Below are positions 3,042-24,056 of a stretch of 64,000 bases of DNA, in pieces; position 1 is the stretch's first letter, and every line of letters begins with the position of its first letter. The translations under genes were made by a program, and so were the position numbers. The notes under the pieces are model-generated. The model was not told the DNA's origin. It made no database searches and saw only the letters and a program-made list of their open reading frames with translations. Location of the stretch: NCBI GenBank assembly GCA_025456205.1, contig JALOLA010000004.1, positions 21,980 through 85,979 on the forward strand, read 5' to 3'. The stretch is from Acidobacteriota bacterium. GTDB lineage: Bacteria > Acidobacteriota > Aminicenantia > UBA2199.

Positions 3042-3050
3042 CTGAACATC

Positions 3051-4382
3051 ATGGTGGAAAAAAATAGCGAAGAGATTTACAGGCAGGCATGTGAAGTATT
3101 AACCGGCGGGGTTAGTCGCAATACCGTTTATCGCAAACCTTTCCCGCATTATGCGGCAAAAGCTTCCGGATGCTATATTTCCGATGTCGAGGGGACGGAG
3201 CGTATCGATTTTGCCAATAATATGGCGGCTCTAATTCATGGGCATGCGCACCCAGCAATAATCGAAGCTGTTTCCCGGCAGCTGCAAAGGGGAACCGCCT
3301 ATACTCTGGCTTCCGAGATTGAAGTGGCATTCGCGCAACTTTTAAATAAAAGGGCTAAGAGTTTTGAAAGAATCAGATTTGTGAACTCCGGAACGGAAGC
3401 CGTCATGGCCATGATAAAAGCATCAAGGGCGTTTACCGGGCGAGCCAAAATCGCAAAAGCAGAGGGCGCTTATCACGGGACTTATGATTATGCCGAAGTC
3501 AGCCAAACTGCAAATCCTACTAACTGGGGGGATATAAACAAACCAAATAGTGTTCCTCTTGTTTATGCAACACCTAAAGGAGTTTTGGATGATGTACTGA
3601 TTTTCCCCTATAATGATATTGAAAGGACAATTGCCATTTTGGACACGCAAGCAGACCAAATCGCTTGTGTATTGATTGACCCTGTTCCGCATCGGGTTGG
3701 GCTTTTGCAGGGCACATGTGAGTTTATTGAGGCAATTTACAATTGGACCCGGAAAAATGGCGCATTACTTGTGTTTGATGAGGTCGTTACTTTGAGAGTT
3801 AAATACGGGGGTGCACAGGAAAAATATTCTGTAAGCCCCGATATAACCGCATTAGGAAAAATTATCGGCGGAGGATTCCCTGTTGGTGCTATCGCGGGGA
3901 GGGCAGATATTATGAAAGTTTTAGACCCTCGTGAAAGTAATCTGCGATTTCCCCATTCCGGAACTTTTTCCGCTAATCCGATCACAATGACCGCCGGTTA
4001 TGTAGCAATGGAACTATTTGACAAAGATGCTGTTCTGAGATTAAATGCGCTAACGGATAAAGCTATCCGACAGATTGAAGAAGTAATCAGGCTCGTCGAT
4101 GTTCCGGTTTCTCTTACAGGAGCAGGCTCCATGTTTCGTTTTCATTTAACTCCAACTCCGCCTTCGACTTATCGTGAAGCTTATCAAACAAAAGAAGCCA
4201 ATGCTATTATTAACGAACTCCTTGACTTTTTGTATTTTAATGAAAAAATGCTAATGATTAACACTTTTGCTTGTATGTTTTCAACGGTAATGACCCAAAA
4301 AGAAATAGATAAACTCTCTGACGGATTGCTGCGAGCTTTTAGGGCATTGAAGCCGAAAATTGAAAAATTACAAAACACATAA
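3051..4382 (+). CDS. Class-III (PLP) aminotransferase of the glutamate-1-semialdehyde aminomutase-like subgroup; candidate beta-amino-acid transaminase
   Basis: YTLASEIEVAFAQLL, FVNSGTEAVMAMIKASRAFTGR and LVFDEVVT...LGKIIGGGFPVGA (PLP-Lys region) are typical of the HemL-like fold type I AT-III subgroup. The subgroup assignment is by similarity pattern only. Confidence 0.75.
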   Translation: MVEKNSEEIYRQACEVLTGGVSRNTVYRKPFPHYAAKASGCYISDVEGTERIDFANNMAALIHGHAHPAIIEAVSRQLQRGTAYTLASEIEVAFAQLLNKRAKSFERIRFVNSGTEAVMAMIKASRAFTGRAKIAKAEGAYHGTYDYAEVSQTANPTNWGDINKPNSVPLVYATPKGVLDDVLIFPYNDIERTIAILDTQADQIACVLIDPVPHRVGLLQGTCEFIEAIYNWTRKNGALLVFDEVVTLRVKYGGAQEKYSVSPDITALGKIIGGGFPVGAIAGRADIMKVLDPRESNLRFPHSGTFSANPITMTAGYVAMELFDKDAVLRLNALTDKAIRQIEEVIRLVDVPVSLTGAGSMFRFHLTPTPPSTYREAYQTKEANAIINELLDFLYFNEKMLMINTFACMFSTVMTQKEIDKLSDGLLRAFRALKPKIEKLQNT

Positions 4383-4383
4383 T

Positions 4384-5589
4384 ATGATGCGGGAAGCTTT
4401 TATTTGCGATGCGATTCGAACCCCGATTGGGAAATACGGCGGTGCATTGTCATCAGTAAGAGCGGATGATTTGGCGGCAATCTCTATTAAAGCACTAATG
4501 AGAAGGAATGCCGGCATTGATTGGAAGGAAATTGATGACGTGATCTTGGGCTGTGCCAACCAGGCAGGTGAAGACAACCGAAATGTAGCCCGCATGGCTT
4601 TGCTGTTGGCCGGCCTGCCCGTAACGGTTCCGGGTGTAACTGCAAACCGCTTGTGTGGTTCGGGAATGGATGCTGTTGGTGCTGCGGCAAGAGCCATCAG
4701 ATCAGAAGAAGCAGAAATGCTGATAGCGGGCGGTGTCGAAAGCATGTCAAGGGCTCCTTTTGTACTGGCAAAAGCAACGGAAGCCTTCTCAAGATCGGCT
4801 GAAATATTCGATTCAACGATTGGCTGGAGGTTCATCAATAAAGAATTCAAGAAAATATTCGGCACTGATTCGATGATAGAAACGGCCGAGAACATCGCCA
4901 GGGAGTTGAAAATCAGTCGCGAAGACCAGGACAGATTCGCATTTCATAGCCAGATGAAAGCTGCAAATGCCCAACAAAATGGATTATTTGCAGATGAAAT
5001 CTTTCCGGTTCTTATTTCACAAAGCAAAGGCGAACAAATAAAAGTGGATCAAGACGAACATCCGCGTTTGACGTCATTGGAAAAGCTTGCATCGTTGAAG
5101 TCGCTTACAGGTGATGGCGGAACAATAACAGCAGGAAACTCTTCCGGTGTCAACGATGGCTCCGCTGCCTTAATTATCGCTTCGGAAAAAGCAATTAAAG
5201 CAAATAATTTAGTGCCCAAAGCCAAAATATTGGGAATGCAAACATCCGGCGTTCCGCCTCGCATCATGGGGATGGGGCCCGTTCCGGCTACAAAACAATT
5301 GCTGAAACGATTGGGATTATCGCTTGACGATATTGGCATCATTGAGCTTAACGAAGCTTTTGCGGCCCAGTCGCTTGGCTGTATTCGCGAGCTTGAACTG
5401 GATGACAATGATGAAAGAATAAACCAGCTTGGCGGAGCTATTGCGCTTGGCCATCCGTTAGGTATGTCAGGTGCTAGAATCGTAGCTACGGCTTGTTGTC
5501 AATTGCAGCGTTCCGATTCCAAATATGCGCTTTGCACTATGTGCATCGGCGTGGGTCAGGGCATAGCAATTGTTTTGGCAAAGGGTTAA
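4384..5589 (+). CDS. Acetyl-CoA C-acyltransferase / beta-ketoadipyl-CoA thiolase-like (PcaF/PaaJ-like)
   Basis: MMREAFICDAIRTPIGKYGGALSSVRADDLAAISIKAL closely matches the PcaF/PaaJ N-terminus. Active-site region NRLCGSGMDAV and C-terminal CIGVGQG are present. ATG at 4384 lies 1 nt after the aminotransferase stop, so I preferred it to the track start at 4360. Confidence 0.85.
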   Translation: MMREAFICDAIRTPIGKYGGALSSVRADDLAAISIKALMRRNAGIDWKEIDDVILGCANQAGEDNRNVARMALLLAGLPVTVPGVTANRLCGSGMDAVGAAARAIRSEEAEMLIAGGVESMSRAPFVLAKATEAFSRSAEIFDSTIGWRFINKEFKKIFGTDSMIETAENIARELKISREDQDRFAFHSQMKAANAQQNGLFADEIFPVLISQSKGEQIKVDQDEHPRLTSLEKLASLKSLTGDGGTITAGNSSGVNDGSAALIIASEKAIKANNLVPKAKILGMQTSGVPPRIMGMGPVPATKQLLKRLGLSLDDIGIIELNEAFAAQSLGCIRELELDDNDERINQLGGAIALGHPLGMSGARIVATACCQLQRSDSKYALCTMCIGVGQGIAIVLAKG

Positions 5590-5810
5590 ATGAAAATCCC
5601 GGTTTGACAGCCGAGATGCCTCCGGCAAATACGCGTGGATTCTTCGAAAACCGGCTGGAATTCTTCGCGTGAACCGATGGCAAGAAGGGAAACAAGCTCT
5701 TTTTTGGTTATGTTTCCGTCTCTGACATCCTTCAAAATATCTTCAATGGGTTTGACCACGCATTCTCCGACAATTCTATTTTTGTCATGACTAATTTTGA
5801 AAAAAACCAT
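5586..5810 (-). CDS. Hypothetical small protein (74 aa; alternative upstream ATG would give 96 aa ending at 5876)
   Basis: This is the 3' tail of the artefactual 995-aa antisense ORF and the only part lying outside fdhA. Intermediate base composition, no recognisable motif. Sits exactly at the AT-rich/GC-rich junction. Confidence 0.3.
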   Translation of the reverse strand: MVFFKISHDKNRIVGECVVKPIEDILKDVRDGNITKKELVSLLAIGSREEFQPVFEESTRICRRHLGCQTGIFI

Positions 5811-5957
5811 TGAAATGGCAATAGGGTCTTTCGAATCATTTATTGCAATTCCCCCGGATATTTCGTACAATACCATACTGGGTATGGGGAATGTAGCGAT
5901 CGCCCATTTGGTCAGCTGGCCATTCGCAATACTTGAGAAGCAAAAAAGGAGGCATCC

Positions 5958-9659: not shown

Positions 9660-12488
9660 TCAAGTCTTGAGGTTCTGAAATAGCCTGAGCAGCTGGGCGC
9701 GGTTGCGCACGGCGAGCTTCTTGAATATATGGTGCACGTGGATCTTCACCGTGCTCAGCTCGATGAACAGCTCGTCGGCGATCTCCCGGTTCGACCGCCC
9801 CTTCAGCAGCAGCTGGACGATCTCCCTCTCGCGGGGGGAGATGCCGACCTTGGCGAAGAGCTGGTCGCGCGCGGCCTCGGTCCTGACCCGGGCGGCCATG
9901 CGGCGGACGCGGTCGCGCCGCCACTCGTAGAGCAGGAGCAGGGCCAGGGCGGACGCCAGCGCCAGGAACCACCAGGACCGCCACCAGGGGGCGAGCACGC
10001 GGATGACCAGGGAGGTCTCCTTCTCATTCCAGAGCCCGTCGCTGTTGGAGCCCCTGACCCTGAAAACGTACCTGCCCGGAGGCAGGCGGGAAAAGGAAGC
10101 CAGCCTGCGCCTGGAGTCGGTCTGCACCCAGTCATCCATCAGGCCTTCCAGCCTGTAGGCATAGCGGTTCTTCTCGGGCGCGGTGTAGTCGAGGGCGGCG
10201 AACTCGAAGGAAAAGAGCGCATCCTGCGGCCGCAGGAGGATCTCGCTGGTTCTCCCAATGGGCCGGGGGAGCTTCACCTCACGGTTCAGCACCTTGAACG
10301 ATGTCAGCCATACCGGCGGCACATACACGTTGTCGAAAATATTCTGCGGCAGGAAAATATTGAAGCCGTTGCCGCCGCCGATGAACATTTCCCCTTCCCG
10401 GTTCGCCAGGATGGAGTTGCTGATGAACCCACCGCTCTGAAGACCGTCGCTCGCGTCGTAGTTGCGGAACTGCCGTGTGCGCGGCGAGAACCTCGACAAG
10501 CCCTCGGCGGTCGTCAACCAAAGGTTCCCGGACCGATCCTCGAGTATGCCGCAGACCATGTCGCTGGCCAGGCCGTCGGCCGGGGTGAAATGGACGAATC
10601 GGTCCTTCTCCCTGTCCAGACGGCTCAGGCCGCCGCCCAGGGTGCCGACCCAGAGGGCGCCATCCTGCCCTTCGTGGATGCAGAAAACATAGTTGCTGTT
10701 CAGGCTGGCCGGGTCGGCGGCATCGTGACGGTAATGGATGAATCTGCCGGTCTGGCGATCGAAGCGATCGAGCCCGCCGCCGTAGGTCCCGATCCATAAG
10801 GTCCCGCCGTGGTCTTCGCTGACGGCGCGCACGATATTGGCGGCCAGGCTGCCGGGGTCCTTTTCGTTGAAGCGGTAGCGGGTGAAGGTTCCCTGCTTGC
10901 GGTCCATGCGGTTCAGGCCGCCGCCATAGGTGCCGATCCACAAAGAGCCGGCCATGTCCTCGCAGATGGCCAGGATGCGGTCGTTGCTGATGCTGGTCGG
11001 ATCGCCCGGCTCGTGACGGTAGGCCGTGACCCGGCCGCTGCCGCGATCGAAGAGCAGCAGTCCCTTGCCGTCGGTGCCCAGCCAGAGATTTCCGTCGCGA
11101 TCGCCCGCGAGGCAGCGGACGATCGTTTTGCCCAGGCTCCCGGGCTGGCCGGGATGGTAGCCAAAATGGGAGAAGGAGTTCGTCTTGCGATCCAGCCGAT
11201 CCAACCCGTCATGGGTCGCGATCCAAAGCCCACGATCCGGGTCTTCCCAGAAGCCATAGACGGTCGTGGCACCCAGGCTGTTGGCTTTGCCCGGGAGGGC
11301 GCGATAATGGGAAAATTTCTTCCGGTTGGGGTTGAAGCGGTCGACGCCGGTGTCCCCCGTGCCGATCCACAGGATCCCCGACCGGTCTTCATGGATCGCG
11401 AATACCTGGTTGCTGCTCAGGCTCTTGGCATCGAGGGGGTCGTTCTGAAAAACAGTCGCCGCGCCGCTCCTGGCGTCCAGGCGGACCAGCCCGGCCGTGG
11501 TGCCGAACCATAACTGCCCGCTGCTGTCTTCGCAAGCCGCTATGACCGGCTCGTCCCGCAGCGGACTCCCGCCTGCGGTCGGGATCGTTACCCTCGCAAA
11601 GCGTCCGGACCGGCGGTCATGCCGGTTCAGGCCGGACTGGGTGCAGACCCAGAGGGTTCCCGTGCGGTCCTCGTGAACCGCGTAGAGGAAGTCGTTGTTC
11701 AGGCTGGCCGGGTCGGCGGGATCGTTGCGGAAAACGCTGAACCGGCCTGTCCGGCGGTCCAGGCGGATGAGCCCCCCACCGAAGGTGGCGATCCAGAGCA
11801 TGCCGTCGCTGTCCTCGCAGATGCCATGGATGTGGTTGCTGCTTCCCGGCCGGTCCGTTGCCAGTGGAAAGCGTGTAAATTTGCCGGTCGCGCGGTCCAG
11901 CCGGTTCAGTCCGTTGTCCGTACCGATCCAGAACCCTCCGTCGCGGTCCTCGAGGATGGCGCCGACGATATCATCGCTCAGGGAATCGCTGCGGTCTCGG
12001 GCATGCCGGTAGTTAGTGAAGGCGCCTTTTTCCGGGTCAAAGCGGTTGAGTCCTCCGTTCAGCGTTCCGACCCAGATGATCCCCCCCCGGTCCTCGTAAA
12101 GCTTCAAGACGGCGCTATGGCTCAGGCTGGAGGAAGAATCCGGGGAATGCTGAAAAACGGTGAAGTCGTAGCCGTCGAAGCGATTCAGCCCGTTTTCCGT
12201 GCCGAGCCATACGAAACCGTCACGGTCCTGGAGAATGGAATATACCGTTTCATGCGAGAGCCCGTCATTTTTCGAGACATTGATGAAGTTGACGTCCTCG
12301 CTCTGCGGCGCCAGGCGCTGGAAGCAGGCGAGACCGATGGCCGCGAGAACGGCGAGCCGGCGCCGCTTCCTGCTCCGCACCGGCGCGGGCAACTTGACCA
12401 CAGGTTCTGCGTTCAGGTGTGATGGCATGTGGAATCCTCTTGGAATCGGCATTGCATCAAGGTAATTAAGACGTTTCAGGCTGGGCAT
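9660..12488 (-). CDS. One-component transmembrane regulator with periplasmic two-component-regulator-propeller repeats, Y_Y_Y region, a TM segment and a C-terminal LuxR-type HTH
   Basis: N-terminal signal/TM. More than 12 repeats of the DG/NGLxxFD propeller motif (for example GFVWLGTENGLNRFDG). TM segment WWFLALASALALLLL. C-terminus REREIVQLLLKGRSNREIADELFIELSTVKIHVHHIFKKL is a LuxR/GerE HTH. Confidence 0.85.
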   Translation of the reverse strand: MPSLKRLNYLDAMPIPRGFHMPSHLNAEPVVKLPAPVRSRKRRRLAVLAAIGLACFQRLAPQSEDVNFINVSKNDGLSHETVYSILQDRDGFVWLGTENGLNRFDGYDFTVFQHSPDSSSSLSHSAVLKLYEDRGGIIWVGTLNGGLNRFDPEKGAFTNYRHARDRSDSLSDDIVGAILEDRDGGFWIGTDNGLNRLDRATGKFTRFPLATDRPGSSNHIHGICEDSDGMLWIATFGGGLIRLDRRTGRFSVFRNDPADPASLNNDFLYAVHEDRTGTLWVCTQSGLNRHDRRSGRFARVTIPTAGGSPLRDEPVIAACEDSSGQLWFGTTAGLVRLDARSGAATVFQNDPLDAKSLSSNQVFAIHEDRSGILWIGTGDTGVDRFNPNRKKFSHYRALPGKANSLGATTVYGFWEDPDRGLWIATHDGLDRLDRKTNSFSHFGYHPGQPGSLGKTIVRCLAGDRDGNLWLGTDGKGLLLFDRGSGRVTAYRHEPGDPTSISNDRILAICEDMAGSLWIGTYGGGLNRMDRKQGTFTRYRFNEKDPGSLAANIVRAVSEDHGGTLWIGTYGGGLDRFDRQTGRFIHYRHDAADPASLNSNYVFCIHEGQDGALWVGTLGGGLSRLDREKDRFVHFTPADGLASDMVCGILEDRSGNLWLTTAEGLSRFSPRTRQFRNYDASDGLQSGGFISNSILANREGEMFIGGGNGFNIFLPQNIFDNVYVPPVWLTSFKVLNREVKLPRPIGRTSEILLRPQDALFSFEFAALDYTAPEKNRYAYRLEGLMDDWVQTDSRRRLASFSRLPPGRYVFRVRGSNSDGLWNEKETSLVIRVLAPWWRSWWFLALASALALLLLYEWRRDRVRRMAARVRTEAARDQLFAKVGISPREREIVQLLLKGRSNREIADELFIELSTVKIHVHHIFKKLAVRNRAQLLRLFQNLKT

Positions 12489-12630: not shown

Positions 12631-13929
<1,299 letters not shown>

Positions 13930-13950
13930 CCGGGAGAACAAATCCTCTGT

Positions 13951-14106
13951 CAAGGCAAAAGGCAAAAGTAAAAAGGCAAAAGTGAAGAAAGCACTCATTG
14001 TACTCATATTGCGGCGGCTATCGTTTCGATCCATGTTTGGAGGATCCAGGTGAAAGCGCTTCTTTCTTACTTTCGCCTTTTGCCCTTTGCCTTTTGCCTT
14101 TCTTTT
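13951..14106. repeat. Heptamer-tandem inverted repeat element R1 (unit GCAAAAG, about 45-bp arms, about 60-bp loop)
   Basis: Left arm aaggcaaaaggcaaaagtaaaaaggcaaaagtgaagaaagc (13951-13992). Right arm gcgcttctttcttactttcgccttttgccctttgccttttgcctt (14056-14100) is its near-perfect reverse complement. Lies between eno stop and the MFS gene start. Confidence 0.85.
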
Positions 14107-14143
14107 CAGACTTGTTGCCTGATCTGCAGAATTTAGGCTGAAC

Positions 14144-15352
14144 ATGGCCACTGCAATCGACCCCGTCCCCGTGAGCCGGAATCTATGGAAGATCCTCGCC
14201 ATGAAGTTCAGCGGCGAGTTCCTGCCCATCGCCCCGGTGCTGATCCTCTACTACACGGTCCATGGCCTCAACTCCACCCAGATCTTCACCATCCAGGCCA
14301 TTTTTCACCTCGGGGTCCTGCTGCTGGAGGTCCCTTCCGGCTACCTGGCCGACGTCATCGGCCGCAGGAAGACGCTGGTCTTCGGGGCGATCTTCTATCC
14401 GCTGGGAGTGGCCGCCTACACCCTGGGGCACAGCTTCTCCGCCTTCGTGCTCGCCGAGCTGGCCTGGGCCGTCAGCGTCAGCATGCGCTCGGGCTGCGAC
14501 TCGGCCATGCTCTTCGACAGCCTGCGCCAGCTGGGGCGCGAGGGCGAGTACAAGCGTTTCGAGGGCAAGTGCGCGCTGGTCGCCCGCAGCGGCACCGCCG
14601 TGTCGTCGGTCGCCGGCGGCCTGCTGGCCTCGGTCTTCCTGCGCCTGCCGTTCCTGGTCAATTTTGCCAGCTCCCTGTTCATGCCGGCGCTGGCTCTCTC
14701 CCTGGCCGAGCCCGAGCGCGAGCCGCGCCGCTCCAAGGATCCGCTCCTCGACATTCTTCGCATCTGCCGTCACTGCCTGCTGCAGCCCCATATCCGGCCG
14801 GTGATCCTCTTCTGCGGGCTGCTCATGGCCGGTCAGCTCACCGCGCTCTGGGCCTATTTCCTGCTCTACAAGGAACTGGGCATCGGCGTGGGCTGGTTCG
14901 GGGTCCTGTTCGCCGTTTTCCAGCTGGCCGGCGCCCTGGGCGGATCGCGCTCCCATGCCTTCAGCGTGCGCTTCGGGGCCAGGGCCGCCCTCTACCTGGC
15001 GCTGCTCAGCCCGCTCTTCTTCATCCTGCTCGGCCTGCTGCCGAGCCTGTGGCTGCTGCCCCTGGTCCCGGCCAACGCCCTGCTCTGGAACCTGGCCTAC
15101 CCGGTGCTGCTCGAGCGGCTGAACCTGGCCGTCGGCTCCGACGTCCGGGCCACGGTCCTTTCCCTGGCCGGCATGGCGGGCAGCGTCACCTTCATCGTGA
15201 TTTCGCCGCTGTTCGGCCGCCTGGTCGATGCCGTCTCCCTCTCCGCCGCCTTTGCCGCCCTGGGCGGCTTCTTCCTCCTGGCCGGGCTACCGCTGCTGGC
15301 GGCCATGCTCAGGAACTGGCAGAAGGAAGTGACTATCCATGGAAAGCAATAA
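14144..15352 (+). CDS. MFS transporter
   Basis: 12 predicted TM helices, MFS-type GRR/K motif (ADVIGRRKT) between TM2 and TM3. Confidence 0.75.
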   Translation: MATAIDPVPVSRNLWKILAMKFSGEFLPIAPVLILYYTVHGLNSTQIFTIQAIFHLGVLLLEVPSGYLADVIGRRKTLVFGAIFYPLGVAAYTLGHSFSAFVLAELAWAVSVSMRSGCDSAMLFDSLRQLGREGEYKRFEGKCALVARSGTAVSSVAGGLLASVFLRLPFLVNFASSLFMPALALSLAEPEREPRRSKDPLLDILRICRHCLLQPHIRPVILFCGLLMAGQLTALWAYFLLYKELGIGVGWFGVLFAVFQLAGALGGSRSHAFSVRFGARAALYLALLSPLFFILLGLLPSLWLLPLVPANALLWNLAYPVLLERLNLAVGSDVRATVLSLAGMAGSVTFIVISPLFGRLVDAVSLSAAFAALGGFFLLAGLPLLAAMLRNWQKEVTIHGKQ

Positions 15353-15505
15353 AATCCCAAATCACAAATTCCAAATTCCAAACAAGCACCAAGCACCAAT
15401 GACCCAAACGAAAAAGAAAAACCCTCAGTGCTTTTGTTTTGGTCATTGGAATTTGGAAATTGGCGCGAAGCGTATTTGGGATTTGGTGCTTGGAATTTGG
15501 AAATT
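15353..15505. repeat. Heptamer-type inverted repeat element R2 (units CCAAATT / CCAAGCAC / CCAATGACCAAAC)
   Basis: cccaaatcacaaattccaaattccaaacaagcaccaagcaccaatgacccaaac pairs with gttttggtcattggaatttggaaattgg...atttgggatttggtgcttggaatttgg. Begins 1 nt after the MFS stop and ends before the B3/4 gene. Confidence 0.8.
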
Positions 15506-15522
15506 TTTAACTGGAGGGGCCG

Positions 15523-16248
15523 ATGAAAGAACTGACCTATGCCATCGCCGCGGAAGTTTTCACCGCGTTCCCTGAGTACCGGCGCGGAGTGGTCGTCGCC
15601 CATGGCGTGCGCAACGGCGATTCGCCCTCCGAGCTGGTCGAGCTGCTGCGCGCCGAGGAGGCGCTGGCCAGGGAAAGGCTCGGCGTAGAGACGCTGACCG
15701 CCGAGCCGCGCCTGGCCTCATGGCGCGAGGCCTTCCGCTGGCTGGGCTACAAGCCCGGCGACTTCCGGCCGTCGATCGAAGCGCTGCTGCGCCGCGTGCT
15801 GCGCGGCCAGGAATTGCCGGCCATCAGCACCCTGGTCGATATCGGCACTGTCATCTCCCTGCGTCACCTGCTGCCGGTGGGCGGCCACGCCATCGACGTT
15901 CTGGCCGGGGATATCGCCCTGCGCCCGGCGACGGGTGCCGAGGAGTTCGTGGCCTTCGGATCGGATGGAATCGAGCGCCCCGCTCCCGGCGAGTTCATTT
16001 TCACCGAAGGGCAAAAGGTCCTGACCCGGCGCTGGATCTGGCGCCAGGCCAAGCACACGCTGACCCTGCCCGGAACCGGCGCGATTGAGTTCAATATCGA
16101 CGGCCTGCCGCCGGTGGCGGACGCCCAGGTGCGAGCCGCGGGCCATGACCTGATGGATCTGGTCGCCCGCTTCTGCGGCGGCAGAACCCGCTTCGAGATC
16201 CTGGATCGGCAGCATCCGCTCCTGCGGCTGGATCGGTCCGTTCTGTGA
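15523..16248 (+). CDS. B3/B4 tRNA-binding domain protein (PheT B3/4-like stand-alone domain)
   Basis: Overall pattern resembles the B3_4 domain found in YtpR-type proteins and PheRS beta. Assignment by sequence pattern only. Confidence 0.5.
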   Translation: MKELTYAIAAEVFTAFPEYRRGVVVAHGVRNGDSPSELVELLRAEEALARERLGVETLTAEPRLASWREAFRWLGYKPGDFRPSIEALLRRVLRGQELPAISTLVDIGTVISLRHLLPVGGHAIDVLAGDIALRPATGAEEFVAFGSDGIERPAPGEFIFTEGQKVLTRRWIWRQAKHTLTLPGTGAIEFNIDGLPPVADAQVRAAGHDLMDLVARFCGGRTRFEILDRQHPLLRLDRSVL

Positions 16249-16385
16249 GGAAAGTCCATTCCCATGCGCCTGAAAAACAAATCCGGCTTCCTGTCCGTAT
16301 AAAAGCCGAGCCTATTCAAAAAATTGAATAATATTGGAAATCCACCATGGCGGATGGTACAACAACTTCAAATAAGGAGAAAAGG

Positions 16386-17888
16386 ATGACAAAAAAAAGC
16401 AAGCGGGCCATGCTGGCCCTGTTCGCCCTGCTGGCATTCTGCGGCAGCGGCCTGTCCGGGCAGACCCTGGATAAAATGAAAACCCTGATCCACGAGAAGA
16501 CCCTGAAGAACGGCATGAAGTTCATCGTCATGGAGCAGCACGAAGCCCCGGTGGCCTCGTTCCATGTCTACGCCGACGTGGGCAGCGCCCAGGAAAGCTA
16601 CGGCATCACCGGGATATCCCATTTCCTGGAGCATATGGCCTTCAAAGGCACGACCACCGTCGGCACCAAGGATTACGCCGCCGAGGCCAGGGTCCTGGCT
16701 GAGCTGGACCAGGCATACGAGGCGCACAGGCGCGAGCAGGCGAAGATCAAGCCCGATGAGGCGGCTCTCAAGGAGCTGAAAGCCCGCTTCGAGGCGCTGC
16801 AGCTGAAGGCCAAGGAGTACGTGGTCAACAACGAGTATTTCGACATGGTCATGGAGCAGGGCGATACCGGGGTCAACGCCTACACCAATTATGATGCCAC
16901 CCAGTACCTCAACAGCCTGCCGGCCAACAAGCTGGAGTTCTGGATGGCCATCACCTCCGACCGCTTCCTGAACCCGGTCTTCCGCGAGTTTTACAAGGAG
17001 CGCGACGTCATCATGGAGGAGCGCCGCCTGGGCCTGGAGACCCAGCCCATCGGCAAACTGATCGAGGACTTCATGGCCGTGGCCTACAAGGCCCATCCCT
17101 ATCACCACCATGTCATCGGGCACATGTCCGACATCCAGGCCATCAGTCACCAGGACATGAAGGATTACTTCGCGAAATACTATTCCCCCAGCAACCTGAC
17201 CGCGGCCATCGTCGGCGATGTCGATCCCCGGGAGGTCTTTCGCCTGGCCGAGCTGTACTTCGGGCGCATCCCCAGCGGTCCCCGACCCGAGCCCCTGCGC
17301 ACCCGCGAGCCCGAGCAGTGGGGCGAGCGCCGGGCCACGGTCACGGCGCAATCGCAGCCGGTGCTGATCGTGGGCTTCCACAAGCCCGCTTCCCAGCATG
17401 CCGACAACGGCGCCCTGGACGCCCTGGCCAACATCATCGGCCAGGGGCGCTCCTCGCGCCTTTGGGAGAGCCTGGTGAAAAAGGAGCAGGTCGCCGCCCA
17501 GGTCGGCTGCTTCAACAACTTCCCGGGCGAAAAATATCCCAACCTGATCGCCTTCTTCTCCATGCCCAGCAAGGACAAGACCGCGGCCCAGTCCCTGGAG
17601 CTGATCGACAAGGAGATCGAGAGGATCAAGACCGAGCCGGTCAGCGCCCAGGAGCTGGCCAAGTACAAGCAGATGACCAAGAAAGGCCTGATCGGCCAGA
17701 TGAAGTCCAATGCCCGCCTGGCGGCCCTGCTGACCGCCTATGAAGTGATCCAGGGAGACTGGCGGCTGGTTTTCGACGAGCTTGCCGCCATTGACAAGAT
17801 CACCGCCGCCGACATCCAGCGCGTGGCCAACACCTATCTCATCGCCACCAACCGCACGGTCGGCGAGATCGTTCCCGAGAAGAAGTAA
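16386..17888 (+). CDS. M16 family zinc peptidase (insulinase/pitrilysin-like), secreted
   Basis: HFLEHMAFKGT (HxxEH inverted zinc motif) and a signal peptide. ATG at 16386 is preceded by aaggag, so I preferred it over the track start. Confidence 0.85.
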   Translation: MTKKSKRAMLALFALLAFCGSGLSGQTLDKMKTLIHEKTLKNGMKFIVMEQHEAPVASFHVYADVGSAQESYGITGISHFLEHMAFKGTTTVGTKDYAAEARVLAELDQAYEAHRREQAKIKPDEAALKELKARFEALQLKAKEYVVNNEYFDMVMEQGDTGVNAYTNYDATQYLNSLPANKLEFWMAITSDRFLNPVFREFYKERDVIMEERRLGLETQPIGKLIEDFMAVAYKAHPYHHHVIGHMSDIQAISHQDMKDYFAKYYSPSNLTAAIVGDVDPREVFRLAELYFGRIPSGPRPEPLRTREPEQWGERRATVTAQSQPVLIVGFHKPASQHADNGALDALANIIGQGRSSRLWESLVKKEQVAAQVGCFNNFPGEKYPNLIAFFSMPSKDKTAAQSLELIDKEIERIKTEPVSAQELAKYKQMTKKGLIGQMKSNARLAALLTAYEVIQGDWRLVFDELAAIDKITAADIQRVANTYLIATNRTVGEIVPEKK

Positions 17889-17902
17889 AGGAAGGATGCA
17901 CC

Positions 17903-20017
17903 ATGAATAAAAAAACTGCAGTCTTTTTGGCATTGGCAGCCGTTCTCTTTTCCCTGTGCGCCGGCCCGCTCGCGGCCCAGAAGAGCCCCAAGGACGCGTT
18001 CGATTTTCCCAAGCTTAACCCGCTGAAAATACCGCCCGTGACGCAACTGACCCTCAAGAACGGCATCCGCCTGTTCCTGATCGAGGACCACCGCTTCCCG
18101 ACCATCGATATGCTGGGGCTGTTTTTCACATCTTCGGCCTTCGAACCCGCCGTGAAGGCGGGCCTGGCCGGCCTGGCCGGCACGGTGCTGCGCACCGGGG
18201 GCACGCAGACGCGCTCCGGCGACCAGATCGACCGCGAATTGGAGACCATGGCCGCCGCGATCGAGACCGGCGTCGACGGCGAGAGCGGTTCGATATCGGT
18301 TTCGCTGCTCAAGGAGAATTTGGACAAGGCGCTGCCGATCATGGCCGACATCCTGCGCCGGCCGCTGTTCGCCCAGGAGAAGATCGACCTGGCCAAGATC
18401 GAGGCCCGCACCGCCATCTCGCGGCGCAATGACGACGTCGGCCAGATCGCCGAGCGTGAATTCACCAAGTTGATCTACGGGGCGCAAAGCCCCTATGCCC
18501 GCCAGAGCGAGTATGCCACCATCGACGCCATCCGCCGCGACGATATCGTCGCCTTTTACAAGGAATACTTCCATCCCGACAACATGTGGCTCGCCGTCTG
18601 GGGTGATTTCAACGCCAGGCAGATGGCGCGGAAGATCGAGACGGTCCTCGGCGACTGGCCGGCGGCCGGCCGGAAGCTGCCGGCACTGCCCGCGGTCGAC
18701 TACGAGTTCAAGTCCACCGTCAATTTCATCGAAAAAAGCGACGTCAACCAGTCCAACATCATGGTCGGCCATATCGGCGGCCTGCTGAACGGCCCCGACT
18801 ACGCGGCGCTCTCGGTGATGAACCGCATCCTCTCCTTTGACCGCATGTTCAAGAGGATCCGCACCGACGAGGGGCTGGCGTATTCGGTCTGGGGCTACTA
18901 CGGGGCAGGCTACAAGGTCCCGGGAGTGTTTTCCGCCGGCGCCCAGACCAAGTCGGGCTCGACGGTCAAGGCCATCGGCCTCATGCTGGAAGAGATGAAG
19001 CGCATGCGCAGCGAGGAGGTCGGCGACCAGGAGCTCAAGAGGGCCAAGGACCAGTTCCTGAACTCGTTCGTTTTCCAGTTCGACAGCCGGGCCAAGATCA
19101 TCCGCCGCATGCTCATCTACGCCTACTACGGCTATCCCCTCGACTTTTCCGAGGATATGATCAAGAAGATCGAGAGCGTGACCAAGGCCGATATCCTGGC
19201 CGCCGCCCAAAAATACCTGCGCCCCGACCAGGTGCAGGTGCTGGTGGTGGGCAAGGCGGCGGACTTCGACAAGCCGCTCAGCGAGCTCGGCCCGGTCAGC
19301 GTCATCGACATCGCTATCCCGGTGCCGGCAGGGGACAAGGCCCCGGAGGCCACGGCCGAGACGCTGGCCAAGGGCAAGGAAACCTTCGCCAGGGCCGTCG
19401 CGGCCATGGGCGACCCGCAGAAGCTGAAGGCGGTCAAGAGCATCCGCAGCGTCAGCGACCTCTCTCAGGCCACGCCGATGGGCGAGATGACGCTGGCGGC
19501 CGAGATCGTTTCCGTCTTTCCCGACAAGCTCCATTTCACGCTGGATACGCCCGGCGGCAAGATGAACATGGTGGTCAACGGCGACAAGGCCGTGATCCGG
19601 ATGCCGCAGGGCACCATGCCGCTGCCCGAGGCGCAGAAGAAAGACCTGCGCGAGAGCATGGGCCGCGACATCGTCTTCATGTGGCAGAACCTGGACCAGT
19701 ACCAGGTTCAGCTCCTGGGCAGGAAGGAATTCGCCGGCGGCGAGGCGATCGAGCTGGCCGTTTCCGGTTTCGGCGCCAGTTTCCATCTCTTCCTGGACCC
19801 CGGCACCCTGCTCCCGCGCGGCACCTCCTTCCAGTCGGTCACGGCGGAGGGGCCGGCCATGGTCGAGGAGCGCGTCTCCGACTATCGTGACGTGGACGGC
19901 ATCCAGATGCCGTTCAAGACCGAGGCCTTTGCCAATGGCAAGAAGGTATCCGGCCAGGCGGTCAAGACGGTCCAGTTCAATACCTCTGTCGGCGAGGATC
20001 TTTTCAAGATCGAATAG
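17903..20017 (+). CDS. M16 family peptidase-like protein, probable non-catalytic partner (no HxxEH), secreted
   Basis: Signal peptide. Two M16-like halves. Lies directly after the catalytic M16 gene, as in PqqL-like pairs. Confidence 0.75.
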   Translation: MNKKTAVFLALAAVLFSLCAGPLAAQKSPKDAFDFPKLNPLKIPPVTQLTLKNGIRLFLIEDHRFPTIDMLGLFFTSSAFEPAVKAGLAGLAGTVLRTGGTQTRSGDQIDRELETMAAAIETGVDGESGSISVSLLKENLDKALPIMADILRRPLFAQEKIDLAKIEARTAISRRNDDVGQIAEREFTKLIYGAQSPYARQSEYATIDAIRRDDIVAFYKEYFHPDNMWLAVWGDFNARQMARKIETVLGDWPAAGRKLPALPAVDYEFKSTVNFIEKSDVNQSNIMVGHIGGLLNGPDYAALSVMNRILSFDRMFKRIRTDEGLAYSVWGYYGAGYKVPGVFSAGAQTKSGSTVKAIGLMLEEMKRMRSEEVGDQELKRAKDQFLNSFVFQFDSRAKIIRRMLIYAYYGYPLDFSEDMIKKIESVTKADILAAAQKYLRPDQVQVLVVGKAADFDKPLSELGPVSVIDIAIPVPAGDKAPEATAETLAKGKETFARAVAAMGDPQKLKAVKSIRSVSDLSQATPMGEMTLAAEIVSVFPDKLHFTLDTPGGKMNMVVNGDKAVIRMPQGTMPLPEAQKKDLRESMGRDIVFMWQNLDQYQVQLLGRKEFAGGEAIELAVSGFGASFHLFLDPGTLLPRGTSFQSVTAEGPAMVEERVSDYRDVDGIQMPFKTEAFANGKKVSGQAVKTVQFNTSVGEDLFKIE

Positions 20018-20035
20018 GTACGCATCCGCGAGCGC

Positions 20036-20070
20036 GTGGGGCGTCCCTGACGCCCCGCCCGCTTTTTCCC
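20036..20070 (+). terminator. Rho-independent terminator after the M16 pair
   Basis: gtggggcgtccctgacgccccgcccgcttttt gives the stem ggggcgtc/gacgcccc followed by a T-run. Confidence 0.6.
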
Positions 20071-20179
20071 CCGGCTTGAATTCCTTTCTCCCCGGCGGTA
20101 CCATAGGATCCGGGACGCATCAGGAAAAATGGCGGCCGCGAGCGCGGCCTGAGCCTTTTCTGGTGGTCGGGAGGTCGCC

Positions 20180-20698
20180 ATGAGCAGCCCGTCGCTGAAG
20201 TTGTACCGCCTGCGCGGGATCTTTATCGTGTACTATATCCTGAAATCGATCGCCGGGGCGGTCATTGCCTTCGGGGTCCTGCGGCCGATCGCCGTCGGGC
20301 GCTATGGCCTGCAGGAATGGTCGCCCGGCGCCCTGGCCGTTTTCAGCCTGGCGATCACCGCGCTCATCCTGTGGCTCGCCTGGCTCGTCTTCGGCCAGCT
20401 GCTGCAGCGCAGGAACTGGGCGCGGGTGCTGCTGCTGGTCATCGGCTGGCTGACGGTCATCAGCGCCATCGCCAGTCTCCTGCTCGCCCCGCAGGCATCC
20501 GCCATGGGTTCCTGGCTCTCCCGCTGGGTGGCACCCCTGGGACTGGACTGGCAGAAGCTGCTGGCGTATGACCGGGTGCAGAAGGTCTTCGAGCTGCTTT
20601 TCTGGGGCTACCTGATCTCGGTGCTGCAGTTCGACCAGGCGGTGCGCGATGAGTTTTTCCCCGGGCCCGACGCCAAAGACGCTCCGCCTGAGCGCTGA
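20180..20698 (+). CDS. Hypothetical membrane protein
   Basis: 4 hydrophobic helices. Codon third-position GC bias is consistent with the host. No recognisable domain. Confidence 0.45.
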   Translation: MSSPSLKLYRLRGIFIVYYILKSIAGAVIAFGVLRPIAVGRYGLQEWSPGALAVFSLAITALILWLAWLVFGQLLQRRNWARVLLLVIGWLTVISAIASLLLAPQASAMGSWLSRWVAPLGLDWQKLLAYDRVQKVFELLFWGYLISVLQFDQAVRDEFFPGPDAKDAPPER

Positions 20699-20730
20699 TC
20701 CGGGAACGACGACTCCTGCGGGAGGGAGAT

Positions 20731-21600
20731 ATGGAACAGATCAGAGAGGTCAAGGAAGTGCGGAGCGGTGCTCCCACTCTGGAGGGGGCGGGGGTGCGGC
20801 TGCGGCGGTTGTTCGGATTTGAAAAGGTCCCGGCCCTGGATCCCTTCCTGCTGCTGGACGATTTCAGCTCGAGAGATCCCGCGGAATACATGGCCGGCTT
20901 TCCCTGGCACCCGCACCGCGGCATCGAGACCATCACCTACCTTCTGCAAGGCGAGATCGAGCACGGCGACAGCATGGGCAACCGCGGGGTGATCGGGCCG
21001 GGAGAGGTGCAGTGGATGACGGCCGGTTCGGGCATCGTCCACCAGGAGATGCCGCGCGAGAGCCGGAAGACCGGCCTGCAGGGCTTCCAGTTGTGGGCCA
21101 ACCTGCCCGCCGCCGAAAAGATGATGCCCCCCCGCTACCGCGGCATCGAAGCCCGGCAGATCCCGCTGGTCGAACGCCGGGACGGGGTGAAGGTGCGGGT
21201 GGTCTGCGGCACGGTCGACGGCGTGCAGGGCCCGGTGCGCGAGATCCGCATCGACCCCGAATACCTGGATGTCGAAATGCCGGCCGGTGCCGTCTTCCAC
21301 CGCCACGTCACCGAAGGCCATGCCATTTTCGCCTATGTCTTCGCCGGCAGCGGGCATTTCGCTCCCGCGAGCAAGAAATCAGCCGCCGCCGGGAACCTGG
21401 TGACTTTCGGCGCGGGTGACCGTGTCGTTATCGCCGCCGGGGAGGCCGGGGTGCGCTTCCTGCTGGTTTGCGGAAAACCGCTGCGCGAGCCGGTGGCCTG
21501 GCGCGGCCCCATCGTCATGAATACCGAGGCGGAGCTGCGCGTTGCTTTCGCCGAATATGCGGCAGGCACGTTTTTAAAGCACAAGGCCGTGCTGGAATAG
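20731..21600 (+). CDS. Pirin family protein (bicupin)
   Basis: FPWHPHRGIETITYLLQGEIEHGDSMGN...GEVQWMTAGSGIVHQE are the pirin N-terminal cupin metal-binding motifs. Confidence 0.9.
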   Translation: MEQIREVKEVRSGAPTLEGAGVRLRRLFGFEKVPALDPFLLLDDFSSRDPAEYMAGFPWHPHRGIETITYLLQGEIEHGDSMGNRGVIGPGEVQWMTAGSGIVHQEMPRESRKTGLQGFQLWANLPAAEKMMPPRYRGIEARQIPLVERRDGVKVRVVCGTVDGVQGPVREIRIDPEYLDVEMPAGAVFHRHVTEGHAIFAYVFAGSGHFAPASKKSAAAGNLVTFGAGDRVVIAAGEAGVRFLLVCGKPLREPVAWRGPIVMNTEAELRVAFAEYAAGTFLKHKAVLE

Positions 21601-21626
21601 CCGGGCCGGCGGATAAGGAGATCGCC

Positions 21627-21899
21627 ATGCGCGAAACATTGCAGGGAATGGTCGGCAAGGATATCGTGGTGGACACCCGTTCGCCCTGGATGTACATCGG
21701 CAGGCTGGAGTCGGTGCAGGCCGACAGCCTGCTGCTGCGCGACGTCGATGTCCACGACAGCGGCGAGAACCCGCTGCCCAAGGAGCGCTACGTGATCGAT
21801 TCCCGCGCCACCGGCATCAAGGCCAACCGCCGCTCGGTCTACGTCAGCCTGGACTATGTGGTCAGCGCCTCGCTGCTGTCCGAGGTCATCAAGTACTAG
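21627..21899 (+). CDS. Hypothetical protein (90 aa)
   Basis: ATG at 21627 preceded by aaggag. The track ORF from 21468 is an upstream extension without an RBS. Confidence 0.5.
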   Translation: MRETLQGMVGKDIVVDTRSPWMYIGRLESVQADSLLLRDVDVHDSGENPLPKERYVIDSRATGIKANRRSVYVSLDYVVSASLLSEVIKY

Positions 21900-21903
21900 C
21901 GCC

Positions 21904-22248
21904 GTGAAGCCCTGGTACCTTTACCTGGTGCGCTGCCGTGACGGCACGCTCTATACCGGGATCTCTTCCGACGTGGGCCGGCGTTTGGCCGAGCACCGCG
22001 CCGGCAAGGGGGCCCGCTACCTGCGCGGCCGGGCGCCCCTGGTGCTGGCGCGCAAGGTCCGCATTGGCCCTGTCGGTGACGCGCTCAAGATCGAGCGCAA
22101 GGTCAAGAGGATGTCTCCCGCCAGGAAAGAAAAACTGATCGCGGGCAAGATCCGGCTGAAAGACTTGATCGAGAAAGACGTCAGACGCCAGACGTCAGAC
22201 GTCAGCAAGAAAAAGATTTTCAAGAACAGGAAAGCAGGGCCTATATAG
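21904..22248 (+). CDS. GIY-YIG nuclease family protein (YhbQ/UPF0213-like); C-terminus reads into repeat R3
   Basis: WYLYLVRCRDGTLYTGISSDVGRRLAEH is the GIY-YIG core. GTG start at 21904. The last 20 codons are encoded by the gacgtca tandem heptamers. Confidence 0.65.
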   Translation: MKPWYLYLVRCRDGTLYTGISSDVGRRLAEHRAGKGARYLRGRAPLVLARKVRIGPVGDALKIERKVKRMSPARKEKLIAGKIRLKDLIEKDVRRQTSDVSKKKIFKNRKAGPI

Positions 22249-22365
22249 CCTCCATCGATGGCTTCGAATTCGATGGACCTCAAAGCGCTTGGCTAACGCC
22301 TGAATTCAGAGTTCGCTTCCTCCCTCTTGCTAACGTCTGACATCTAACGTCTAACGTCTAACGTC
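22177..22365. repeat. Heptamer-tandem inverted repeat element R3 (units GACGTCA / GACGTTA), about 115-bp loop containing palindromes ccatcgatgg and tcgaattcga
   Basis: Left arm gacgtcagacgccagacgtcagacgtcagcaag (22177-22209). Right arm cttgctaacgtctgacatctaacgtctaacgtctaacgtc (22326-22365). Confidence 0.85.
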
Positions 22366-22372
22366 TTCTGGG

Positions 22373-22840
22373 TCATCCTCCCGCCGTTTGCGGGAAGGCG
22401 GTGTTGGAATAGAGGTACTCGACCTTCTCCTTGTGCTTCAACTCCTGGTCGGCCATGGCCAGCAGCATCGCGCGCAGCTCGCCTTCGGGCTGCAGGGCGG
22501 CCAGGGACTTGTAGAAGTTGTAGGAGTTCCATTCGCGGTGGGCGGCGACCAGGTAGACCTCGCTGCTGTTCATGTTCTTCTTGGGGTCGGGCTTCTCGGT
22601 GTATTGGGCGATGTGGTAGTCGATCAGGGTGTCCAGGGGCAGGGCGGCGATCTTTTTTTCGCCCTTCAGGTAGGCTTGCAGGAATTCCTTGTGCGCCAGC
22701 TCTTCGCCGGCCAGGAATTTCAAGGTCTCTTTGGCCAGGGCATCCTGCACCAGGTCATGCAGGCCCAGGTAGAACGTCCGGGCCTCCTCCTCGTTCTTGA
22801 TGGCGCTCTCTATCACGCTCTGCAGGCTTTGTGCTTCCAT
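22373..22840 (-). CDS. Ferritin-like / rubrerythrin-like domain protein
   Basis: Paired E-x-x-H helices (EEEARTFYLGLHD ... ELKHKEKVEY) are typical of diiron ferritin-like four-helix bundles. Confidence 0.55.
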   Translation of the reverse strand: MEAQSLQSVIESAIKNEEEARTFYLGLHDLVQDALAKETLKFLAGEELAHKEFLQAYLKGEKKIAALPLDTLIDYHIAQYTEKPDPKKNMNSSEVYLVAAHREWNSYNFYKSLAALQPEGELRAMLLAMADQELKHKEKVEYLYSNTAFPQTAGG

Positions 22841-22867
22841 TGTGCTCCCTCCTTTGATTGCTTGTCC

Positions 22868-24004
22868 CTACAAACTGAGCAAGGCGCTGAACATGACCTG
22901 GTTGGTCTTGGCCTTGGCGCTCAGGAAATAATCGCTGGTGAAATGGGCGAATTCCAGGCCGAAGCTCACCCCGGAGCCGGCGGCGAACTGGACGCCGGCC
23001 AGCAGCGCGCCGGTTTTCTTCAATTCCCTGGCGGCGAGCTGATCGTCATCGCTCAGGTCCTCGAAGGCGTAGCCCAGCCAGCCGTTCCATTTGCCTTCGC
23101 TGAGCAGCAGCTCCGACCAGAAGGCCTGCACTTTCTTGGCGGCGAATTCCTGCCGGGCGATGTCGGTGAACAGCCCGGCGCGGCTGACCACGTAGGTCAG
23201 ATTGGCGCCGGAGAGGAACTCGCCCTTCAGCGCCAGGCGCTTGCAGATGGAGAGGTTCCAGTCCAGGCTGGCGCCGGCGGCAGCGACCGTGTTATTGAAG
23301 GCGACGGTGGCGGCGCTGGCTTTTTCGCGGCCGTAGATCCCCGAGAGCCCGACCTGGTACCTGCCGTTCGCGCCCAGCTTCAGGCCCAGGCGCCCCTGCA
23401 GCACCGGCATGATCGCCGCCCAGCCGCCCGCGGTGGCGGGATCGCTGATCGAGGCGGCAAAGTCAAAGCGCAGAGCCGAATAGGTGTAGCGCACCTGGGC
23501 GTGGCGGAAGCCGACGTTTCCCGTCTGCCACAGGTAGCCGTTGATCATCAGCGTGGTCGGGCCGAGGGGCGAGAACAGGTCCCAGGCCTGGCCGAACAGC
23601 AGGCTGTGGCCTTTCTTGGCCAGGGAGAAATAGCCCTGGCGGAAGCGCGGCTTCATCTGGTTGGGGCTGGCGGTATCGAAGAAGTCCCATTCCAGAACGG
23701 CGGATAGGTTCATGCCGTTGCTCAACGGGGCGCCGGCGTACTTGAGGCCGAAACGGGTGTGGGTGGCCGACAGGTAGAGATTGCCGTCCCCGCCAGTGGC
23801 GTAGCGCGGGAAGGTCAGGCCGTTGACGCCGCCGTCCTGGTAGGCGGCATCGAGCTTGAAGAAGCCGTAGAGCTGAAGCTTGCTTTTTTCCGTGTCGAGC
23901 AGGGTGACGTCCCCGTAGGCGCGCAGGCAGGGCAGCAGCAGCAAGCTGAGCAGGAATGCCAATATTAAAGTTCTTTTCATCGTGACCTCTTTTTTTGATT
24001 TCAC
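22868..24004 (-). CDS. Outer-membrane beta-barrel protein (porin-like), hypothetical
   Basis: Signal peptide MKRTLILAFLLSLLLLPCLRAYG. Alternating amphipathic beta-strand pattern throughout, with aromatic girdle residues. Confidence 0.55.
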   Translation of the reverse strand: MKSKKEVTMKRTLILAFLLSLLLLPCLRAYGDVTLLDTEKSKLQLYGFFKLDAAYQDGGVNGLTFPRYATGGDGNLYLSATHTRFGLKYAGAPLSNGMNLSAVLEWDFFDTASPNQMKPRFRQGYFSLAKKGHSLLFGQAWDLFSPLGPTTLMINGYLWQTGNVGFRHAQVRYTYSALRFDFAASISDPATAGGWAAIMPVLQGRLGLKLGANGRYQVGLSGIYGREKASAATVAFNNTVAAAGASLDWNLSICKRLALKGEFLSGANLTYVVSRAGLFTDIARQEFAAKKVQAFWSELLLSEGKWNGWLGYAFEDLSDDDQLAARELKKTGALLAGVQFAAGSGVSFGLEFAHFTSDYFLSAKAKTNQVMFSALLSL

Positions 24005-24056
24005 CCATTTTACCCTATTGCCGGGGTGTTTTCAATCAGCCCAGCGGACGGAGAGG

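Follow-up and report, generated by a model that had tools for sequence, protein, structure and literature searches.

To our knowledge, tandem repeats of heptanucleotides have been a statistical oddity since 1990 and 2007, without an accepted origin or role; we know of nothing like the elements treated below described in the Aminicenantes, nor of any such element in the phylum. The cyanobacterial STRR sequences, attributed to Mazel in 1990, reportedly comprise tandem heptamers of several kinds. MITEs such as the Correia elements of Neisseria are non-coding, AT-rich sequences of 100-300 bp with inverted ends that are co-transcribed with neighbouring genes, and the pneumococcal BOX elements are modular, with a variable number of internal tandem modules. 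According to PMC4679880 and PMC4692102, which summarise Mrazek 2007, heptanucleotide repeats are the most abundant long simple repeats of most prokaryotic genomes, with polymerase slippage as the hypothesis for their formation. In Xanthomonas, 70-75 of some 185 arrays of the heptamer GGGAATC form convergent inverted pairs capable of forming stem-loops (Rehm 2015, PMC4692102); these intergenic arrays have a mode of four units, and their length and sequence vary between related species (PMC4692102). REP, BIME and REPIN sequences, finally, are mobilised by RAYT (Y1/HUH) transposases (PMC2817692, PMC3116915, PMC3733652).

The window considered here, that is, the whole 64,000-nt stretch of Acidobacteriota (Aminicenantia) DNA that was analysed, contains intergenic elements that share features with several of these systems. 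As with LSSR/STRR repeats, tandem 7-nt units stand in three to six or more copies between genes, several unrelated heptamers occur per genome, period 7 is favoured and the pattern varies between close relatives at given intergenic sites; with at least three head-to-tail 7-nt copies each, the window arrays belong among the heptanucleotide repeats. Unlike LSSR/STRR repeats, they are mostly paired as the arms of discrete palindromes with a defined loop, and whole elements reappear at further sites. The intergenic position, the inverted pairing and the variation between relatives are likewise those of the Xanthomonas repeats. These, however, are one G-rich family with G-quadruplex potential, whereas the window holds at least seven unrelated families, mostly AT-rich and free of G3 tracts: its units (GCAAAAG, CCAAATT, GACGTCA, GGCGTAA, CGTAACG and AAGTTCG) lack the tract of three or more Gs per unit that characterises the G-quadruplex repeats of Xanthomonas and Nostoc.

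Resemblance to REP/REPIN sequences lies in the intergenic palindromes made of two inverted halves that form one long hairpin, and in a dispersed, lineage-specific distribution with clustered nests and no visible target-site duplications. The elements differ from them in that they share neither a GTAG or CGTC tag nor one consensus, in that no RAYT gene is linked to them within the window or the 10 kb preceding it, and in arms that consist of tandem heptamers rather than of one 20-40-bp palindrome. Presence or absence at orthologous sites, insertion in either orientation and half copies are shared with MITEs and BOX elements; for the window elements no target-site duplication was visible and no parent insertion sequence with matching ends was found, and an internal 7-nt periodicity sets them apart. 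Because they lack a REP tag, no RAYT linked to them was found over the stretch covered, and they are MITE-like save for target-site duplication and a parent element, we file them between known kinds, as a combination of heptanucleotide tandem repeats with MITE/REPIN-like palindromes. The preliminary description did not recognise the class. Heptanucleotide repeats, STRR and the Xanthomonas inverted pairs are in fact published (PMC4692102, PMC4679880).

Period-7 arrays and hairpins in the window

Ten strong period-7 tandem arrays were detected in the window by our own self-match scanner, against 0.05 expected from 20 dinucleotide-preserving shuffles, and each of the other periods among 4-14 yielded 0-3 arrays (same scanner, 64 kb). 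Tandem Repeats Finder reports period 7, with 3.3-5.3 copies, at seven of the eight loci described, and the longest close inverted repeats of the window are these same heptamer loci (Table 1). Long-hairpin folds occur at six loci on both strands (z -3.6 to -9.2), and true inverted heptamer pairs at five (fold z about -4 to -9). The loci are also carried by two independent JGI metagenomes (3300037408 and 3300037461) at 99.8-99.94% identity without indels, and are therefore not an assembly artefact.

These results narrow the original account of eight loci, each with 7-nt tandem units, a heptamer of its own and a reverse-complement partner. Period 7 holds for seven of them, but the locus at 26456-26559 has period 11; five are inverted heptamer pairs, but those at 33657 and 43834 have no partner; and the heptamers are only partly locus-specific, as GACGTYA units occur at two loci and GGCGTAA-type units at another two. 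By contrast with these revisions, the gene contexts are as originally described: loci follow stop codons, separate convergent genes or occupy divergent promoter regions.

Table 1. Repeat elements of the 64-kb window and neighbouring features, with REP copies of related loci (families, F numbers; comparison loci, L numbers; TRF, Tandem Repeats Finder).
Feature	Coordinates	Arms, units and interior	TRF	Fold (region; z, strand)	Site
F1	13945-14110	left (AAGGCAA)x4-5 at 13952-13986; right (CTTTTGC)x4-5 at 14066-14101; interior about 80 nt; arms 32 nt, 88% complementary	13952-13982; 14070-14101	13945-14110; -4.8 (+), -8.6 (-)	17-22 nt past enolase stop, upstream of MFS gene
F2	15351-15508	CCAA+NNN heptamers (CCAAATT, CCAAGCA, CCAATGA); core CCAATGACCCAAAC...GTTTTGGTCATTGG	15352-15382; 15445-15502	15348-15510; -4.9 (+), -3.9 (-)	starts on MFS stop codon, ends 15 nt before B3_4 gene
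F3	22176-22366	left (AGACGTC)x4 at 22176-22210; right (TAACGTC)x4-5 at 22325-22366; arms 35 nt, 86% complementary	22176-22205; 22330-22366	22170-22370; -5.0 (+), -9.2 (-)	between convergent GIY-YIG (+) and rubrerythrin (-) genes
F6	26456-26559	purine-rich arm AGGGAAGACAG, period 11, against pyrimidine-rich arm(s); not a heptamer array	detected	26440-26570; long hairpin, both strands (sixth folding locus)	divergent region, GNAT (-) / HGSNAT (+)
F4	27785-28097	left GGCGTAA/GGCGTGA units at 27785-27825; right (CCTTACA)x3.3 at 28066-28097; interior about 260 nt	28075-28097	27770-28110; -4.5 (+), -4.7 (-)	between convergent HGSNAT (+) and MFS (-) genes
Hairpin in F4 interior	27887-27915	CCCCCTCTCTTCCCAAAGAGAGGGGG, perfect and separate			
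Solo arrays	33657-33724	(CGTAACG)x4 at 33657-33684, then (GGCGTAG/A)x3.4 at 33701-33724	33657-33684; 33701-33724	33657-33790; about -1	upstream of tRNA-Met promoter
Direct repeat	33740-33775	13-14 nt, GCAAGGTTCA(GGGC)GCAAGGTTCA			beside the solo arrays
F3 half element	43834-43900	inverted copy of right arm of the 22176 element plus about 35 nt of interior		43834-43900 (solo arm); -1.5 / -3.2	between two small unannotated ORFs
F5	56410-56523	left (AAGTTCG)x4.6; right (CGAACNT)x4.4; 54 nt between	56410-56441; 56493-56523	56400-56530; -4.3 (+), -4.2 (-)	divergent region, DEAD-box helicase (-) / family-2 glycosyltransferase (+)
REP copies in relatives	L095:2919, 4174, 4601, 4913; L096:1005, 2228; L090:3466; L091:9940; L099:19838, 20150, 20740				

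All arrays are intergenic but one, the F3 left arm, which falls within the GIY-YIG ORF, in its tail outside the domain. As originally noted, this ORF (21856-22248) is invaded at its 3' end: it reads through the left arm, whose array corresponds to codons 107-117, past the Pfam domain at residues 20-88. The protein has 130 residues in the window and 106 in the related locus L101 (19354-19674); the extra C-terminal tail is encoded by the F3 left arm and interior, and the L101 stop codon lies within the first heptamer of an element of that locus's own. The difference in the tail between the two genomes indicates that the repeats reshape ORF ends.

Two loci depart from the paired architecture. At 33657-33790 two different arrays stand in series without a reverse-complement partner. 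The half element at 43834-43900 aligns to the 22176 element with a local score of 30, shuffled sequences giving 9.0 +/- 1.5. The homopurine/homopyrimidine arms of F6, with their 11-nt period, are mirror-like and have triplex (H-DNA) potential.

The window is ordinary chromosome but for a low-GC block at 1-5900 (GC 0.39-0.45 versus 0.64 elsewhere) that continues for some 700 bp beyond the window's upstream end (L102:9300-15800). Its products are a PurE-like protein, a protein with a weak radical-SAM match, a class-III aminotransferase, a thiolase and two subunits of a CoA-transferase. The block was probably gained as an operon by horizontal transfer, and has no heptamer arrays within it.

The families resemble one another in architecture and not in sequence, since their units are no closer than random and share no end motif. 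Specifically, the best-phase distance between family consensus units averages 3.17, against 3.18 for random units of the same composition (P 0.48), which upholds the initial view of a shared architecture with unrelated primary sequences and led us to reject a hidden common motif (G-N-C-G-T-N-A or GTNA). At least eight families occur in the lineage, seven with 7-nt units and one with period 11; elements are 90-330 bp long, and in the seven heptamer families the arms consist of three to six tandem, slightly degenerate units.

The same sites in related genomes

For comparison we assembled about 180 kb from related genomes (about 244 kb of the lineage in all, within which copies were counted). The set includes 14 loci with the enolase-MFS-B3_4 gene order, obtained by a metagenome scan with the MFS protein as query, and six further loci of 14-21 kb each, fetched via TilS homologues; TilS of Candidatus Aminicenantes MAGs is 70-78% identical to that of the window, which itself is 100% identical to TilS of an NCBI 'Acidobacteria bacterium' MAG. 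Enolase was less informative for taxonomy, its best genome matches among those listed (74-79%) being scattered over Anaerolineales, Cryosericum, Syntrophobacteraceae and Aminicenantes and lacking synteny. Three of these loci, the long ENA contigs L105, L106 and L107, have fragmented gene calls (TilS and MFS are split, for example), which suggests frameshift errors in long-read assemblies, and array unit counts there are to be treated with care.

The enolase-MFS spacer illustrates how variable a single site is. It measures about 50 bp and holds a REP hairpin (GTAGGGGTTTGAT-NN-ATCAAACCCCTAC) alone in L086, L088 and L095, an F1 element (GCAAAAG) in the window and L093, a diverged F1 in L089, an F2 element (CCAAATT / CAAGCAC / CAATGAC) in L087 and L091, the latter retaining the REP beside F2, and an F8 element (ATGGGTN) in L085. 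In the adjacent MFS-B3_4 spacer, F2 is complete in the window and L088, reduced to its left half in L089, and absent from L087 and L092, which have no element there. Where the window has F3, between GIY-YIG and rubrerythrin, L101 has a different family and L099 a plain 9-bp hairpin; the F4 site bears an AGTGACA-family hairpin in L101 and F2 plus F7 or F5 arrays in L105 and L106. Upstream of tRNA-Met (window 33657), nothing was found in L099, L100, L101 or L105, and L106 carries F6 (L106:9725-9820). The comparison of orthologous sites, a check proposed with the first description, thus returned sites that are empty, carry a REP or carry different heptamer families. That related genomes differ in the family present at each site, if any, argues for propagation of the elements into varied intergenic sites.

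The GTAG-tagged classical REP occurs at many intergenic sites of the relatives, including the same sites as the elements (Table 1), and no copy within two mismatches is present in the 64-kb window; the hairpin repeat system therefore differs between related genomes. Between B3_4 and MFS, L099 has a Y1_Tnp gene of low GC content and IS200-like type (19888-20379; Pfam E 7e-7), flanked by REPs, and a further REP copy falls at about 20150, inside the called Y1_Tnp gene.

Dispersal of whole elements

Copies of one family recur at different sites and in different orientations. The F2 element of the window, between MFS and B3_4, is the reverse complement of the L091 and L087 copies at a different site: aligned across the two sites, column identity is 83% as reverse complement versus 68% forward, and pairwise matches number 129/152 versus 109/144. 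F2 is represented by seven full copies at four sites (alignment, with BLAST support), and its termini, AAAATTCCAAAT...ATTTGGRATTTT, are kept in all seven, forming terminal inverted repeats as in MITEs. Further full copies of F2 come from L106, with one at the MFS/HGSNAT site and one at the HGSNAT/GNAT site, and from L105, with a single copy. A single family of L101, (AGTGACA)3 - loop - (TGTCACT)3-4, occupies two sites matching those of F3 and F4 in the window, its copies being about 80% identical over 100 nt. F5, F6, F7 and F8 also lie at non-orthologous sites in L105 and L106, among them a solo F5 array in L106, and a CGTGACG/CGTAACG array of L105 is at a site other than window 33657. Half elements are present in the window (43834-43900, F3) and in L089 (F2).

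Such insertion polymorphism, with different sites and different orientations, is that of MITEs, and the combination of presence and absence, non-orthologous sites and inverted and half copies speaks for dispersed copy-and-paste families and not for hairpins formed in place. The original statement that the loci are unlike MITE or REP-type repeats is accordingly not supported: whole elements, arms and loop together, recur elsewhere, inverted, present or absent, and halved. Copies of one family within one genome are 1.2-21 kb apart, and local copying or ectopic conversion may be their source.

Neither a transposase nor a RAYT gene was found across the 64 kb of the window and the 10 kb that precede it. 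The sequences bordering the F2 copies, whose exact ends are uncertain by a few bases, contain no visible target-site duplication, and a reading of all element ends revealed neither a common terminal motif nor a conserved GTAG/CGTC tag. Having seen no target-site duplication and no conserved terminal motif, we infer mobility from the distribution of copies alone.

Change within elements

Between species, the arms have been remodelled. The variant unit TTGCCCT of F1 is at a different position in the window than in L093, the right arm being equally long, and in the F1 element of L089 most units, in either arm, have T or A in place of the C of GGCAAAA; these T/A variants are out of register between the arms, with several pairs broken. 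Arm-specific units distinguish F3 (GACGTCA / GACGTTA), F4 (GGCGTAA / GGTGTAA) and F5 (AAGTTCG / ATGTTCG), in each of which an arm is uniform within itself and one position apart from the opposite arm. The patterns fit gain, loss and homogenisation of units within arms, with some exchange between arms; the comparison of within-arm and between-arm unit identity is suggestive only, as its coordinates take in flanking sequence. In the F2 stem, compensatory change affects 2 of 43 pairs across seven copies and many pairs are broken, so the stems look inherited and decaying rather than selected.

At strain level, four metagenome contigs that are 99.8-99.94% identical to the window have arrays of unchanged length, and unit turnover was seen at species-level divergence only. 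Contingency-locus hypervariability was rejected, given that no array indels separate the strains. The one substitution inside any array among the strain-level contigs is at 15356 (C in the window, T in L002); it converts AAATCCC to AAATTCC, the majority unit of that array, and this single event could be chance or conversion. The proposal that the loci evolve by heptamer slippage therefore fares unevenly: turnover between orthologues fits it, but arrays are invariant among strains and slippage itself was not directly seen.

Occurrence beyond the lineage

The density of strict inverted pairs falls from 4.7 per 100 kb in the window to 1.5 in Aminicenantes relatives and 0.15 in diverse genomes, the last being 1.31 Mb from 80 genomes fetched via enolase, among the matches listed. 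Period 7 is the commonest in this diverse set (13 arrays versus 0-8 for other periods), and inverted heptamer hairpins occur in L036 (Chloroflexia), L071 (Bacteroidales) and L024 (Acidobacteriota).

In principle, these elements could be a local mutational by-product, with pre-existing terminator hairpins growing by 7-nt slippage and each change being mirrored to the other arm by intrastrand template switching (quasi-palindrome correction), and with nothing mobile. The predominance of period 7 in diverse bacteria and the inverted heptamer hairpins of unrelated phyla are consistent with such growth, as are the T and A unit variants that both L089 arms share out of register and the lack of a common end motif among families. 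It leaves unexplained, however, the homologous loops and unit order at different sites, the inverted orientation, the half copies and the insertion beside a retained REP in L091, and it is already contradicted for F2, F3 and the L101 family. We regard this account as improbable; dispersal of whole elements is the reading we retain.

Two loci outside the lineage place arrays next to small genes. In L024, from an unrelated Acidobacteriota MAG, the spacer after enolase (11306-11818) has an (ATTTCAG)4 / (CTGAAAT)5 hairpin, followed by a gene that encodes an Avd-like four-helix bundle of 121 residues (PF05635, '23S rRNA intervening-sequence protein') and that overlaps a (GAAATCT)5 array at its 3' end; heptamer arrays may thus form the borders of a small gene cassette here. 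Cassette borders were rejected as a reading of the window arrays, since no ORF longer than 43 residues and no family match was found between the arms of the window elements. The larger insertions of L090, L091 and L093 consist of ordinary genes. In L023 (Litorilinea, a Chloroflexi MAG; 4666-5009), a (GATTGGC/GATTGGA)x4 array directly precedes a small nucleotidyltransferase gene and is partly read into this NTP_transf_2, antitoxin-like gene.

RNA-level and protein-binding explanations

The suggestion that the loci are structured terminators or attenuators is not borne out: they lack a GC-rich stem with a U-tract, include two divergent loci, show no strand asymmetry linked to transcription and have hardly any compensatory change. 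Of 16 terminator-like sites in 13000-29000, not one falls on an element, and their count equals the shuffle expectation; canonical GC-rich terminators exist elsewhere, for example at 20036-20058, and also in L102. An asymmetry between G-U and A-C pairs was rejected as a sign of RNA-level constraint, as the strand that folds better bears no consistent relation to the transcribed one. In a search of the window against Rfam 15, tRNA-Met alone reached the gathering score, and at E<=0.1 the sole further matches were spurious plant or animal miRNA hairpins on 26434-26559.

A broader functional reading would make the elements RNA hairpins under selection (terminators, 3'-end protectors or RNase III sites), with heptamers as their mode of growth. 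Arms begin 0-22 nt from stop codons at four co-directional or convergent loci, the folds are strong, short T-rich runs follow F1 and F2, and relatives have some hairpin (plain, REP or heptamer) at nearly every 3' end compared; moreover, E. coli REPs act as 3'-UTR regulators (bioRxiv 10.64898/2026.03.23.713779) and the Xanthomonas heptamer repeats are mostly transcribed (PMC4692102). Set against this, two loci lie in divergent promoter regions and two solo arms do not fold, the stems are AT-rich with interiors of 50-260 nt and none is terminator-like, fold energy has no consistent bias to the transcribed strand, F2 stems are nearly devoid of covariation, and the elements are dispensable at orthologous sites. 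We therefore hold selection on RNA hairpins to be an unlikely basis for the loci and exclude it as a general explanation; at the four 3'-end loci, where relatives carry some hairpin, a 3'-UTR hairpin role is possible.

It has also been proposed that the arrays bind a repeat-recognising protein. In this case they would be multivalent sites for a protein with about 7 nt per domain (cold-shock-domain, S1-type or nucleoid), the hairpin being incidental. Cold-shock proteins bind one heptamer per domain, as cited in PMC4679880, and the arrays are regularly built and lie between genes; the window has no candidate gene linked to them, however, and no single sequence-specific reader fits heptamers that are unrelated between families. 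Binding of this kind seems very improbable as their explanation.

A model of propagating palindromes

Taken together, the loci are probably complete or half copies of small, propagating, non-coding palindromic repeats in multiple families with heptamer-tandem arms. The distribution of copies shows elements propagated into intergenic DNA as whole units, arms and loop together, in either orientation, beside stop codons or in promoter regions, and often adjoining one another or classical REPs. After insertion, replication slippage in a preferred step of 7 nt, as has been suggested for heptanucleotide repeats at large, may add, remove and homogenise the units of an arm, while shared ancestry or copying templated by the hairpin would keep the opposite arm roughly complementary. 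In this model they would be selfish or near-neutral DNA, any 3'-UTR hairpin effect being secondary. That no target-site duplication and no end motif common to the families was seen is suggestive of structure-dependent mobilisation, such as by an HUH/Y1-type enzyme acting on single-stranded hairpins. The model gives no reason for the 7-nt step that unrelated families have in common.

A more speculative extension, which we consider doubtful, is a class of mobile DNA set by structure: palindromes with a 7-nt step, in many unrelated families, served by one sequence-independent mechanism. That this mechanism would be a heptad-hairpin enzyme, or a universal 7-nt slippage of the replisome on hairpin DNA, is likewise a tentative and rather unlikely proposal. 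If such a structure-defined class were real, the loci of Chloroflexia, Bacteroidales and other Acidobacteriota would belong to one widespread, unnamed phenomenon.

In practical terms, heptamer-armed elements break short-read assemblies, extend or truncate ORFs, as in the GIY-YIG tail, and can pass for terminators or small-RNA genes in the annotation of MAGs. For the biology of the lineage, the related genomes provide a natural series, in which identical intergenic sites are empty, REP-bearing or heptamer-palindrome-bearing in genomes that are 75-89% identical. This series makes two alternatives testable: whether such elements spread as mobile units or grow in place, and whether the 7-nt step comes from replication or from a dedicated enzyme.
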